Part shown: one piece after another, positions 23,609-27,089 of the stretch | How the letters are laid out: every line of letters starts with the position of its first letter | Numbering within the stretch: position 1 is the stretch's first letter | Assembly (NCBI RefSeq): GCF_053078305.1 | Contig: NZ_CP166879.1 | Length of the DNA stretch: 64,000 nt | Direction: 5' to 3' (one strand) | The notes under the pieces: model-generated | Database searches by the model: none | Seen by the model: the letters and a program-made list of their open reading frames with translations, nothing else | What the model was told of the DNA's origin: nothing | Program-made: the position numbers and the translations under genes

Positions 23609-23926
23609 ATGAGCATTATCTCAACGAAATATCTTCTGCAGGATGCGCAGGCCAACGCCTACGCCGTACCGGCGTTTAACATCCACAACGCCGAAACGAT
23701 CCAGGCGATCCTCGAAGTGTGCAGCGAAATGCGCTCGCCCGTGATCCTCGCGGGGCCCCCTGGCTCGTTCAAACATATTGCCCTGGAAGAGATCTACGCC
23801 CTGTGCAGTGCGTATTCGATCACTTACGACATGCCGCTAGCACTGCATCTCGATCATCACGAATCGTTGGATGACATTCGCCGTAAGGTTCACGCCGGCG
23901 TACGCAGCGCGATGATCGATGCTTGA
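23609..23926 (+). pseudogene. kbaY: tagatose-bisphosphate aldolase KbaY/AgaY, N-terminal 105 codons only
   Basis: [49 protein letters not shown]...[26 protein letters not shown], then a stop. Full-length class II aldolases of this type are ~285 aa. Confidence 0.8.
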
Positions 23927-24010
23927 TGCGCATAGCGTGCAGGTGATCATCGGAGCGCAGGTACAGAGCGTCAAAACCGGCATTGAAGCCTTAATTTAAC
24001 AGGAGGAGTG

Positions 24011-25174
24011 ATGTTTGATTTCGACAAAATCATTGAGCGTCAAAGTGATAAGTGCCGTAAATGGGACCATGCCTTTGTTTGCTCGCGTTTCGGTGACGTC
24101 CCGGAGTCCTTCATCCCCCTGTGGATAGCCGATATGGATTTCACCTCACCGCCTGCGGTGATTGACGGTTTCCGGCGCATCGTGGAGCACGGCACCTTTG
24201 GTTATACTTGGTGCTTTGACGAATTCTACGACGCAGTCATCGCCTTCCAGCGCAAACGTCATCAGGTTGAGGTGGAAAAATCGTGGATCACGTTGACCTA
24301 CGGCACGGTATCCACGCTGCACTACACGATTCAGGCGTACTGCAAACCGGGTGACAGCGTGATGATGAACACGCCGGTCTACGATCCTTTTGCGATGGCG
24401 GCACAGCGCCAGGGCGTGCAGGTACTGGCTAACCCGCTGCGCGTGGAGGGAAACCGCTACCAGCTTGATTTTAATCTGATAGAAGAACAGCTCAAAACCT
24501 ACCGTCCAACGCTGTGGTTCTTCTGCTCGCCGCATAACCCGTCCGGCAGGATCTGGCGCGAGGAAGAAATACGCCAGGTGTCCGATCTCTGTCAACGCTA
24601 CGGCACGATTCTGGTGGTCGATGAGGTTCACGCTGAACACATTCTGGATGGCAAATTCGTCAGTTGTCTCACCTCTGGCTGTGCCGCCCAGGACAACCTG
24701 ATCGTGCTCACATCGCCCAACAAAGCGTTAAAGCTGGGCGGGCTGAAAACCTCCAACTCCATGATTCCAGACGACTCGCTGCGCCAGCGCTTCCGCCAGC
24801 AGCTTGAGAAGAACTCCATTACCTCGCCCAATTTGTTCGGGGTATGGGGAATCATTCTGGCCTATCAACACGGTCTGCCCTGGCTCGACGCGCTGAACGG
24901 TTATCTGCAAGGCAACGCCCGGTATCTGGCGGATGCCCTCCAGACCCACTTCCCGGCGTGGAAGATGATGACCCCGGAATCGTCGTATCTGGCGTGGATA
25001 GACGTAAGCGCGGATGAGAGTAGCGCAACGCAGCTAACCCAACATTTCGCACGGCAGGCAGGCGTGGTCATAGAAGACGGCAGCCACTATGTACAAAACG
25101 GTGAAAACTACCTACAGATTAATTTTGGCTCTCAGCGCTACTGGCTGGAGCGATCCACCAACCGAATGCAGTAA
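24011..25174 (+). CDS. MalY/PatB-type PLP-dependent C-S lyase (cystathionine beta-lyase family)
   Basis: ATG 24011 follows AGGAGG. 387 aa fold-type I aminotransferase pattern (IPLWIADMDF, FCSPHNPSGRIW, TSPNKALKLGG). Preceded at 23922-23999 by the last ~25 codons of a PtsG/MalX-type EIICB gene (...VQVIIGAQVQSVKTGIEALI*). Confidence 0.75.
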   Translation: MFDFDKIIERQSDKCRKWDHAFVCSRFGDVPESFIPLWIADMDFTSPPAVIDGFRRIVEHGTFGYTWCFDEFYDAVIAFQRKRHQVEVEKSWITLTYGTVSTLHYTIQAYCKPGDSVMMNTPVYDPFAMAAQRQGVQVLANPLRVEGNRYQLDFNLIEEQLKTYRPTLWFFCSPHNPSGRIWREEEIRQVSDLCQRYGTILVVDEVHAEHILDGKFVSCLTSGCAAQDNLIVLTSPNKALKLGGLKTSNSMIPDDSLRQRFRQQLEKNSITSPNLFGVWGIILAYQHGLPWLDALNGYLQGNARYLADALQTHFPAWKMMTPESSYLAWIDVSADESSATQLTQHFARQAGVVIEDGSHYVQNGENYLQINFGSQRYWLERSTNRMQ

Positions 25175-25199
25175 CATTACAGATAAGGATCTTACACCA

Positions 25200-27089
25200 A
25201 TGAAGAAAGTGCTCACTCTCTCACTACTGGCTCTGTGTGTGTCTCATAGTGCAGTAGCAGCAAACTATACGTTCAATAACGATAATATTGCCCTCTCGTT
25301 TGATGATACAAACTCGACGATTGTGCTGAAGGACCGTAGAACTAACCATCCGATCACACCACAGGAATTGTTCTTTCTGACACTACCGGATGAGACAAAA
25401 ATCCACACCGCAGATTTCAAAATCAAGCACATCAAAAAACAGGACAATGCGATTGTCATCGACTTTACGCGCCCAGATTTTAACGTAACAGTGCAGTTGA
25501 ACCTTGTGAAGGGAAAATATGCCAGCATCGACTACACTATTGCCGCCGTTGGGCAACCACGAGACGTTGCCAAGATTACCTTCTTCCCGACCAAAAAACA
25601 GTTTCAGGCTCCTTACGTAGACGGCGCAATCACTAGCTCACCGATCATTGCGGACTCGTTCTTTATCCTGCCGAATAAACCGATCGTGAATACCTACGCC
25701 TATGAAGCAACAACCAATCTCAACGTAGAACTGAAAACTCCAATTCAGCCAGAAACGCCGGTTAGCTTTACCACCTGGTTCGGTACTTTCCCGGAAACCA
25801 GCCAGTTGCGACGCAGTGTGAACCAGTTTATTAATGCCGTACGTCCACGTCCGTACAAGCCTTATTTGCATTACAACAGTTGGATGGATATCGGCTTTTT
25901 CACTCCGTACACCGAACAGGATGTTCTGGGACGCATGGACGAATGGAACAAGGAATTCATTAGCGGCCGCGGAGTGGCGTTAGACGCTTTTCTGCTGGAC
26001 GATGGCTGGGACGATCTTACCGGACGCTGGTTATTTGGCCCGGCATTCAGCAACGGTTTTAGCAAAGTACGAGAGAAAGCCGATAGCCTGCACAGCTCCG
26101 TTGGGCTATGGCTTTCACCGTGGGGGGGTTACAATAAGCCGCGCGACGTTCGCGTTTCGCATGCAAAAGAGTATGGGTTCGAAACCGTGGACGGCAAGCT
26201 GGCGCTGTCGGGAGCGAACTACTTTAAAAACTTCAATGAGCAGATCATTAATCTTATCAAAAATGAACACATTACCTCGTTTAAACTCGACGGAATGGGG
26301 AACGCCAGTTCACATATAAAGGGTAGCCCGTTCGCCTCGGATTTTGATGCGTCAATAGCTCTGCTGCACAATATGCGCAGAGCAAACCCGGATCTATTTA
26401 TTAACCTGACCACCGGCACCAACGCCAGCCCGTCCTGGTTGTTCTATGCTGATTCTATCTGGCGTCAGGGGGATGATATAAACCTGTATGGCCCCGGCAC
26501 GCCGGTGCAGCAGTGGATAACATACCGTGATGCCGAGACATACCGCTCTATTGTACGTAAAGGCCCGCTGTTCCCGCTGAACTCGCTGATGTACCACGGG
26601 ATAGTCAGCGCCGAGAATGCCTATTACGGGTTAGAGAAGGTGCAAACGGACAGCGACTTTGCCGATCAGGTCTGGAGCTACTTCGCGACCGGCACCCAGC
26701 TGCAGGAGCTGTATATTACCCCGTCCATGCTGAACAAGGTGAAGTGGGATACGCTGGCGAAGGCTGCAAAATGGTCGAAGGAAAATGCCAGCGTGCTGGT
26801 TGATACCCACTGGATTGGCGGCGACCCAACGGCGCTTGCCGTGTACGGCTGGGCATCCTGGAGCAAAGACAAAGCCATTCTCGGTTTGCGCAACCCATCG
26901 GATAAGCCACAGACCTACTATCTGGATTTGGCGAAGGATTTCGAAATACCGGCAGGAAACGCGGCGCAGTTTAGTCTGAAAGCGGTATACGGCAGCAATA
27001 AAACCGTGCCCGTTGAGTATAAAAACGCGACGGTGATTACGTTGCAGCCGCTGGAAACGCTGGTGTTTGAGGCGGTGCCCATTAACTAA
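25200..27089 (+). CDS. secreted glycoside hydrolase, melibiase/alpha-galactosidase-like TIM-barrel
   Basis: ATG 25200 with AAGGA RBS; the track start 25089 overlaps the lyase gene. Signal peptide MKKVLTLSLLALCVSHSAVAA. Motifs HYNSWMDIGFF, LLDDGWDD and SFKLDGMG are typical of the GH27/36-like clan. The family call is tentative. Confidence 0.6.
   Translation: MKKVLTLSLLALCVSHSAVAANYTFNNDNIALSFDDTNSTIVLKDRRTNHPITPQELFFLTLPDETKIHTADFKIKHIKKQDNAIVIDFTRPDFNVTVQLNLVKGKYASIDYTIAAVGQPRDVAKITFFPTKKQFQAPYVDGAITSSPIIADSFFILPNKPIVNTYAYEATTNLNVELKTPIQPETPVSFTTWFGTFPETSQLRRSVNQFINAVRPRPYKPYLHYNSWMDIGFFTPYTEQDVLGRMDEWNKEFISGRGVALDAFLLDDGWDDLTGRWLFGPAFSNGFSKVREKADSLHSSVGLWLSPWGGYNKPRDVRVSHAKEYGFETVDGKLALSGANYFKNFNEQIINLIKNEHITSFKLDGMGNASSHIKGSPFASDFDASIALLHNMRRANPDLFINLTTGTNASPSWLFYADSIWRQGDDINLYGPGTPVQQWITYRDAETYRSIVRKGPLFPLNSLMYHGIVSAENAYYGLEKVQTDSDFADQVWSYFATGTQLQELYITPSMLNKVKWDTLAKAAKWSKENASVLVDTHWIGGDPTALAVYGWASWSKDKAILGLRNPSDKPQTYYLDLAKDFEIPAGNAAQFSLKAVYGSNKTVPVEYKNATVITLQPLETLVFEAVPIN

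Follow-up and report, generated by a model that had tools for sequence, protein, structure and literature searches.

In the 64-kb window analysed here (64,000 nt of contig NZ_CP166879.1, RefSeq assembly GCF_053078305.1), positions 23609-27089 carry a block of gene remnants and two long open reading frames (ORFs); all coordinates below are window positions. We consider it likely that this block is the tail of a decayed Enterobacter-type operon for N-acetylgalactosamine (GalNAc) catabolism, the aga operon, in which a lyase gene persists as a relic and the gene for an exported glycosidase of the glycoside hydrolase (GH) 27/36 type survives. The block was read from an ORF list and the raw sequence, followed by Pfam and NCBIfam profile scans of the translated ORFs. 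Together with its borders it comprises the following features:

22138-22715, minus strand: pseudogene of agaR (DeoR-family repressor), split by a frameshift into ORFs 22144-22425 and 22407-22715.
22716-22963: divergent agaR-kbaZ control region, with CTTTCGTTT repeats retained at 22735, 22874 and 22921.
22964-23587, plus strand: in-frame KbaZ-AgaS fusion ORF, matching PRK15458 (KbaZ) over residues 1-96 and TIGR02815 (AgaS) over residues 93-207, with Pfam in agreement.
23609-23926, plus strand: kbaY, truncated after codon 105 of about 286 (NF009375 KbaY positions 1-105 of 286; F_bP_aldolase 2-104 of 277).
23919/23920: junction of a 2172-bp deletion, placed by colinear blastn against Enterobacter ludwigii and by flanking sequences.
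23922-23999, plus strand, in a frame other than that of kbaY: last 25 codons and stop of a MalX/PtsG-type phosphotransferase system (PTS) enzyme IICB (EIICB) gene, the end of the EIIB domain.
24008/24011-25174, plus strand: ORF of 387/388 codons for a pyridoxal phosphate (PLP)-dependent carbon-sulphur (C-S) lyase of the PatB/MalY family (Pfam, NCBIfam).
25200-27089, plus strand: exported, glycosidase-like protein of 629 aa from the Ast/YacT 'enterotoxin' family, hereafter the hydrolase.
27149-27417, minus strand: remnant of rsmI (yraL, 16S rRNA methyltransferase), colinear with E. ludwigii and the far end of the captured donor segment.

An intact counterpart is native in E. ludwigii, in the order kbaZ-agaVWEF-agaA-agaS-kbaY-EIICB-lyase-629-aa protein, followed by rsmI on the opposite strand and lpoA. 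Colinear blastn aligns window positions 23243-23919 with 5871-6547 of E. ludwigii L006 and 23920-27417 with 8720-12186, and the 2172-bp deletion between them eliminated kbaY over its 3′ two-thirds, then the spacer, and roughly 95% of the EIICB gene related to malX, with 1-2 nt at most of shared sequence at the junction. The stop codon of the truncated kbaY (23926) arose from this junction. These alignments bear out the earlier note on this DNA, made from the letters alone, which held that the transporter ahead of the lyase had been deleted and that a PTS tail lay behind kbaY: 24 of the 25 residues of the tail are those of the C-terminus of an intact 523-aa EIICB in Escherichia coli AMA1167, and the NCBI Prokaryotic Genome Annotation Pipeline (PGAP) labels the same tail in UTI89 'PTS maltose transporter subunit IIBC, missing N-terminus'. 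Because the alignment shows one clean deletion, the association of the tail with a truncated kbaY is not due to chance. With only its last 25 codons left, the window gene lacks the EIIC membrane domain and all but the end of the EIIB domain of its intact 523-aa relatives. A second scar lies upstream, where the fusion ORF encodes a 207-aa chimera of KbaZ residues 1-96 and the last approximately 115 residues of AgaS, the mark of an internal deletion of agaVWEF-agaA; some RefSeq records list this chimera as an intact protein. PGAP describes the rsmI remnant as '16S rRNA methyltransferase, internal stop, incomplete'.

At species level, the hydrolase has its nearest relative in Enterobacter sp. MGH 24 (93% amino-acid identity), where the malX-malY insertion is in place. 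From this relative, the E. ludwigii gene order and the colinearity we conclude that an E. coli island took a chromosomal segment reaching from garD to rsmI from an Enterobacter-like donor. The block thus reads, by its sequence, as a decayed second copy of an Enterobacter-type garD-agaR-kbaZ…kbaY-malX-malY-hydrolase-rsmI segment. The donor arrangement is agaR, divergent from kbaZ-agaVWEF-agaA-agaS-kbaY-(MalX-like EIICB)-(PatB-type lyase)-(exported glycosidase), and then rsmI; pieces of garD and rsmI came along with the captured part. Its decay in the window involved a frameshift in agaR, one deletion joining kbaZ to the end of agaS, and the 2172-bp deletion joining kbaY codon 105 to the last 25 codons of EIICB.

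The conserved partner of the hydrolase is the GalNAc catabolic operon, as its position behind kbaY across genera indicates. For a tally, 80 loci collected by means of the hydrolase were searched by tblastn with aga proteins from Enterobacter. Of the 36 loci that belong to enterobacterial genera, at least 27 have the hydrolase gene directly 3′ of kbaY, where it closes the aga operon; they span Enterobacter, Kosakonia, Klebsiella, Raoultella, Buttiauxella, Ewingella, Yersinia, Serratia, Pantoea and Photorhabdus. Gene-call tables confirm this layout in Klebsiella aerogenes, a YacT-bearing Yersinia and a 51%-identical representative. At 40% identity, in Dyella and relatives, an AgaS homologue still lies a few kb upstream of the hydrolase gene, and further genes of the annotated Dyella locus encode a DeoR regulator, two PfkB kinases, a TonB-dependent receptor and a NAGLU-family enzyme.

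The earlier note had described a 629-aa ORF starting 25 nt past the lyase stop, with DDGW and KLDG motifs and a signal peptide, and all of this stands (DDGW at residues 267-270, KLDG at 362-365). The N-terminus (MKK, a hydrophobic core at residues 4-13 and AVA/A) is Sec-signal-like by inspection. We propose the following domains and functional residues:

Residues 1-20: signal peptide.
Residues 22-196: N-terminal β-sandwich.
Residues ~220-530: (β/α)8 barrel.
Residues 537-627: C-terminal β-sandwich.
25998-26009: D267, D268 and W270, proposed to bind substrate.
26283-26291: K362 and D364, with the proposed nucleophile.
26463-26477: R422 and D426, with the proposed acid/base.

An AlphaFold model built from 20 homologues (pLDDT 85, pTM 0.85) has an eight-stranded barrel between two β-sandwiches, the layout of GH36; its sole low-confidence part is residues 1-19, which are disordered, and the first strand begins at residue 22. 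A Foldseek search of this model against the Protein Data Bank (PDB) gives as its top match the GH36 blood-group-A α-galactosaminidase of Flavonifractor plautii (E = 1e-23), followed by GH36 α-galactosidases, GH97 and GH31. DDGW follows barrel strand 2 (263-266), K362-L-D364 lies within strand 4 (360-366), and W421-R422-Q-G-D-D426-I, a WRxxxDI motif, follows strand 6 (419-422). In GH27 and GH36, we take these positions to be occupied by the Asp pair that binds substrate, by the nucleophile and by the acid/base. In alignments reaching down to about 30% identity, D267, D268, W270, K362, D364, R422 and D426 either do not vary or reach at least 90% conservation. The model and fold search thus support a predicted glycoside hydrolase of clan GH-D (GH27/GH36-like), with a presumed retaining α-glycosidase activity.

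The wider family comprises 1702 clusters at 50% identity, many of them from soil taxa (Dyella, Rhodanobacter, Acidobacteria). Seven of 52 distant members match PF02065 Melibiase, and others are fused to F5/8-type-C, NedA-like, NPCBM, Laminin_G_3, GH20 and sialidase-N domains. Such domains are the usual partners of host-glycan hydrolases.

The names attached to the family tell another story. Nearly all homologues are called 'enterotoxin' or 'enterotoxin YacT', and the hydrolase is 75-77% identical over 100% of its length to proteins with the latter name; a few are called 'alpha-galactosidase', 'alpha-amylase family protein' or, in Dickeya, 'Predicted exported alpha-N-acetylgalactosaminidase'. 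PGAP has annotated the block in hundreds of genomes, and the hydrolase goes by 'enterotoxin' in older annotations and by 'alpha-galactosidase' in newer ones of PGAP. The 629-aa protein might accordingly be a true toxin, cytotonic like Ast or insect-active like YacT, serving as a virulence factor of the island, with its fold incidental or used in receptor binding. To this reading belong the 77% identity to 'enterotoxin YacT' proteins, the 54% identity of YacT to Aeromonas Ast, the attenuation of a yacT deletion mutant of Yersinia frederiksenii in Galleria and the altered hemocyte morphology reported on injection of YacT (PMC6246891), as well as the location of the gene on an island of extraintestinal pathogenic E. 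coli (ExPEC) and the mostly synonymous nature of its changes. A toxin is nevertheless hard to reconcile with the terminal place of the gene in a sugar-catabolic operon, with catalytic-type Asp, Lys and Arg residues that stay invariant to about 30% identity, and with a family whose 1702 clusters, many soil taxa and many carbohydrate-binding fusions form the pattern of an enzyme family rather than a toxin family; the reported phenotypes could also stem from glycan trimming on host cells. We therefore regard a dedicated toxin as distinctly unlikely. The 'enterotoxin' name is inherited from Ast and YacT and is uninformative on fold or operon context. In the passages of the YacT paper examined (PMC6246891), neither the glycosidase fold nor the aga context is mentioned, and the searchable literature, outside whose scope the key comparative paper falls, yielded no paper linking Ast or YacT with a GH27/GH36 fold or with aga operons, and nothing of relevance on Ast and α-galactosidase or on aga operons and GH36.

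On sequence and gene context, the glycosidase is most likely an exported α-N-acetylgalactosaminidase. This prediction already exists as a database name, which likely goes back to Leyn et al. 2012; our operon data support the specificity and stop short of proving it. An ordinary α-galactosidase of the melibiose/raffinose type, or an α-galactosaminidase, is somewhat unlikely. The newer PGAP name is in line with the first, and the top Foldseek match, a GH36 galactosaminidase specific for galactosamine (GalN), with the second. Fold similarity at 10-14% identity cannot, however, settle specificity for the C2 substituent, and the linkage is to the GalNAc-specific agaVWEF, agaA, agaS and kbaYZ genes, not to galactoside transporters or the GalN-specific agaBCD PTS. 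As an α-N-acetylgalactosaminidase, the protein would reach the periplasm through its Sec signal peptide and would act as a GH27/GH36-type retaining exo-α-glycosidase in which Asp364 serves as nucleophile and Asp426 as acid/base. It may free α-linked GalNAc from host-type glycans or glycopeptide fragments, and the freed GalNAc could enter a complete aga pathway, should the genome have one outside the window.

Several observations weigh against this assignment. In Dickeya, Vibrio, Xenorhabdus and Gilliamella the hydrolase gene stands alone, apart from aga genes. Substrate specificity is read from operon context, which does not discriminate between α-GalNAc, α-GalN and α-galactose (α-Gal), and the roles of the catalytic residues are carried over by analogy from GH27/GH36 motifs. 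Pfam and NCBIfam (E ≤ 0.01) match the hydrolase nowhere, with Melibiase, Melibiase_2 and Glyco_hydro_31 all silent; the profile check for Melibiase, GH27, GH36 or GH31 proposed in the earlier note thus came back empty. PDB sequences, queried with the protein, with a profile of 20 sequences or with the barrel core by itself, gave only E = 0.14-0.9, so that the glycosidase assignment rests on structure prediction and fold search; the lone, non-significant match falls at the DDGW motif. Published toxin-like phenotypes of Ast and YacT (PMC6246891) stand on the same side.

The lyase presents a different picture. Its ORF, with the AGGAGG ribosome-binding site that the earlier note had pointed to, gave in the Pfam search proposed there a match to Aminotran_1_2 (PF00155, E = 3e-34), and it exceeds the cut-off of TIGR04350 (PatB C-S lyase) marginally, with 342.8 bits against 340. 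The ancestral EIICB, represented by the intact AMA1167 gene, shares 53% identity with K-12 MalX from end to end. The lyase itself is just 29% identical to K-12 MalY, and we reject on this ground an orthologue of E. coli MalY that modulates the Mal regulon, a role that had been raised for it. It keeps the PLP lysine K238. However, four substitutions (F240L, N241K, Y249N and R369Q) affect residues with 100% conservation across 117 homologues, among them K-12 MalY, and the C-terminus is 3-4 residues short. Arg369 aligns with an arginine that fold-type I PLP enzymes conserve towards the C-terminus, and it is presumably this residue that binds the carboxylate of the substrate. The lyase is therefore probably inactive despite its open frame, as far as its sequence can tell. 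Of the earlier statement that lyase and hydrolase both look intact, the part on the hydrolase holds, its changes being mostly synonymous, and the part on the lyase does not, so that the hydrolase gene is the only one in the block that is still well kept.

Branch-specific changes, assigned by parsimony with Enterobacter outgroups to the window branch or the AMA1167 branch, separate the two genes further. On the window branch the hydrolase has 17 nonsynonymous and 50 synonymous changes (ω about 0.1) and the lyase 12 and 7, as against 1 and 5 in the lyase on the AMA1167 branch, where the transporter is intact. The window-branch ratio of the lyase differs from its long-term ratio (Fisher p = 0.0006) and from that of the hydrolase branch (p = 0.005). 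Relative to UTI89, the lyase differs at 4 nonsynonymous and 3 synonymous codons and the hydrolase at 1 and 5. Among positions at least 90% conserved in 113 homologues, the hydrolase deviates at one (L25F). These counts are consistent with purifying selection on the hydrolase. In our reading, selection on the lyase would have relaxed after the loss of the transporter, with the hydrolase still constrained: deprived of its partner, the lyase would have gathered substitutions at family-invariant residues and become an open-frame relic. Against this, the branch-specific substitutions, or some of them, may already have been present in the donor lineage when the segment moved; in that case the difference between the two genes does not on its own date events inside E. 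coli.

The same data bear on whether the whole block, the hydrolase included, is functionless cargo whose two ORFs are open merely because too little time has elapsed. All flanking genes (garD, agaR, kbaZ, agaS, kbaY, malX and rsmI) are fragments or pseudogenes, the lyase already has substitutions of an inactivating type, and an internal promoter was not detected in a scan of 22600-27400, where matches stayed below shuffled controls. On the other side, the hydrolase ratios of 17/50 on the branch and 1/5 against UTI89 contrast with 12/7 and 4/3 in the lyase. The hydrolase is also full-length in both E. coli variants of the island, in about 500 complete genomes, and its exact sequence is present on 158 contigs. 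We consider it unlikely that the hydrolase is mere cargo.

Expression of the hydrolase gene could draw on what is left of the operon. The agaR-kbaZ control region holds three of the four CTTTCRTTT matches of the whole window, and its CTTTCGTTT repeats resemble what we take to be the published AgaR operators. Because the island agaR is frameshifted, any control would have to come from a resident AgaR. The promoter and terminator scan of 22600-27400 returned fewer matches than shuffled controls and is therefore uninformative, with no internal promoter or terminator prominent across 22964-27089, and transcription of the hydrolase gene would plausibly occur by read-through from the retained aga promoter with its AgaR-operator-like repeats. 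Past the hydrolase stop, 27090-27175 holds two GC-rich hairpins, ccgggtaaggcgcaagcgccacccgg, which resembles a repetitive extragenic palindromic (REP) element, and cagcaggggcttagtccccctgctg; neither has a T-run on the plus strand, and the terminator scan reported neither.

Across genomes, orthologues of the lyase are nearly always preceded by an EIICB gene, so the functional unit is EIICB plus lyase. In Salmonella enterica subsp. indica, Morganella morganii and Aeromonas veronii (approximately 5400-8250 of each locus), this unit directly follows kbaY at the end of an aga operon that lacks the hydrolase gene; it stands alone in Hafnia and on another enterobacterial-type contig, and in an Aerococcaceae genome it lies behind a BglG-type antiterminator. 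From gene order it appears to be an add-on of aga operons in several lineages, independent of the hydrolase. The MalXY-like region described in the BEN2908 genome paper is a different one.

A dedicated functional pair of lyase and hydrolase, a MalY-like regulator or enzyme working with a glycosidase, had been put forward in the earlier note, which proposed looking for both genes behind an intact PTS gene. Such loci exist: EIICB and lyase lie between kbaY and the hydrolase gene in six tallied loci and in E. ludwigii, seven loci of Enterobacter, Yokenella and related bacteria with consecutive malX-malY-hydrolase genes, and in the window the two genes are 25 nt apart on one strand. The context tallies nonetheless reject the pair. 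Most hydrolase loci have no lyase, the Salmonella, Morganella and Aeromonas loci have EIICB-lyase without a hydrolase, the unit can stand alone, and the gene conserved as companion of the lyase is EIICB, which is deleted in the window; the low identity to K-12 MalY counts against the regulator half as well. A dedicated pair is, in our estimate, extremely improbable. In the locus of Enterobacteriaceae bacterium 89, positions 4887-6896 hold a second, divergent PTS set of the mannose family (36-48% identity to AgaV/W/E), placed after the EIICB-lyase unit and before the hydrolase gene.

A more speculative idea concerns the intact ancestral tail behind kbaY, which might have offered two parallel routes for harvesting GalNAc from O-glycoprotein stubs, a periplasmic exo-α-N-acetylgalactosaminidase and a PTS/lyase route. 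In the latter, the MalX-like EIICB might import and phosphorylate a conjugate of GalNAc and an amino acid, for example GalNAc-α-O-Ser/Thr (Tn antigen), from which the PatB-type lyase might free GalNAc-6-phosphate by β-elimination, yielding pyruvate or 2-oxobutyrate and ammonia. Drawn from gene context, this speculation would leave the window with its PTS-lyase route destroyed and its glycosidase route remaining; we hold it to be very doubtful. If true, the idea would supply the physiological role that has long been missing for PTS transporters paired with C-S lyases, as in malXY. The repeated attachment of EIICB-lyase to aga operons is in any case a concrete lead on the function of malXY-type modules.

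The block lies in a genomic island, between an aryl-polyene-like cluster and island genes of the YfjI and Gp2 types, and its flanks comprise a garD pseudogene, the frameshifted agaR, the rsmI fragment, a scrap of IS66 and the Gp2-type and YfjI genes. A resident aga locus in which agaB-yraK had been replaced, as first suggested, is ruled out, since the flanking genes belong to the island. Window positions 3494-34705 are colinear with the thrW island of E. coli relatives, which in close relatives adjoins tRNA-Thr (thrW)/proA; a tRNA scan of the 64-kb window, aimed at the attachment site of the island, found no tRNA. In megablast against complete E. coli genomes, the region is at least 99% identical in about 190, including UTI89, NU14, IHE3034, APEC O18, NC101 and 83972. 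About 320 further E. coli genomes, for example AMA1167, carry a variant that is 94% identical in nucleotide sequence and has an intact EIICB gene, together with an internal deletion of its own that extends from kbaZ as far as the kbaY end. At synonymous sites the two variants diverge by 0.073 in the lyase and by 0.305 in the adjoining hydrolase (24011-27086 against 12090-15165 of the AMA1167 locus), an inequality that points to recombination or a mosaic build within the block. A third hydrolase variant, 89% identical, is present in about 40 E. coli genomes as a C-terminal fragment alone; in EF7-18-58 (locus 7998-8534) it adjoins an IS110 remnant and a nanE-type PTS locus.

Elsewhere in the window, the stretch at approximately 4800-19850 has genes on one strand for acyl carrier proteins, ketosynthases, a chain-length factor, dehydratases, FabG2 and an acyl-CoA synthetase, along with a GT2 glycosyltransferase, a LolA-like protein and an MMPL transporter, and looks like an aryl-polyene-type lipid cluster. 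A ShlB/FhaC-type secretion gene lies ahead of it at approximately 3494-4310; gene coordinates for approximately 3494-19850 were transferred from the annotation of a related E. coli island. Past the island match, 35365-40491 forms about 5 kb at only about 90% identity to E. coli genomes, encoding an aspartate ammonia-lyase, two C4-dicarboxylate transporters, a HypT-like regulator and an Asp/Glu or cysteate racemase, and no complete E. coli genome reached 80% coverage of 33500-45500.

By its modelled fold, its residues and its operon context, then, the 'enterotoxin' gene of hundreds of ExPEC and other E. coli genomes is predicted to encode a glycosidase of GalNAc utilization, and virulence-gene catalogues that score it as a toxin are probably misleading. 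Should it release α-GalNAc from mucin or blood-group glycans, strains bearing the island might have a small nutritional edge on mucosal surfaces, and the phenotypes of Ast and YacT would become explicable as glycan trimming.

Four known systems help to place the block. Ast of Aeromonas hydrophila and YacT of Y. frederiksenii belong to the same family as the window protein and are of similar length (about 630 aa); in the Yersinia locus examined, the YacT gene ends an aga operon, whereas the window gene sits in a decayed, island-borne copy of one. By analogy, the hydrolase resembles the GH36 and GH27 enzymes FpGalNase (9ayu, 9awt, 8x1b), Geobacillus AgaA (4fnp) and rice α-galactosidase (1uas) at strands 2, 4 and 6, but it shares just 10-14% sequence identity with these structures and has no Pfam Melibiase match of its own. 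The K-12 malX-malY operon has the same two-gene build, a Glc-family EIICB followed by a PLP lyase of the PatB/MalY family. Unlike it, the window-type pair has no malI and lies behind kbaY in aga operons, and in the window EIICB is cut to 25 codons and the lyase lacks four invariant residues. Finally, the aga remnants are orthologous to the E. coli aga/gam cluster (agaR, kbaZ, agaVWEFA, agaS, kbaY, agaBCDI), with gene order kept and garD and rsmI as bounds in both. Unlike that cluster, the window copy is a non-functional, island-borne second copy, of a donor type in which EIICB, lyase and glycosidase stand at the place of agaBCDI-yraHIJK.

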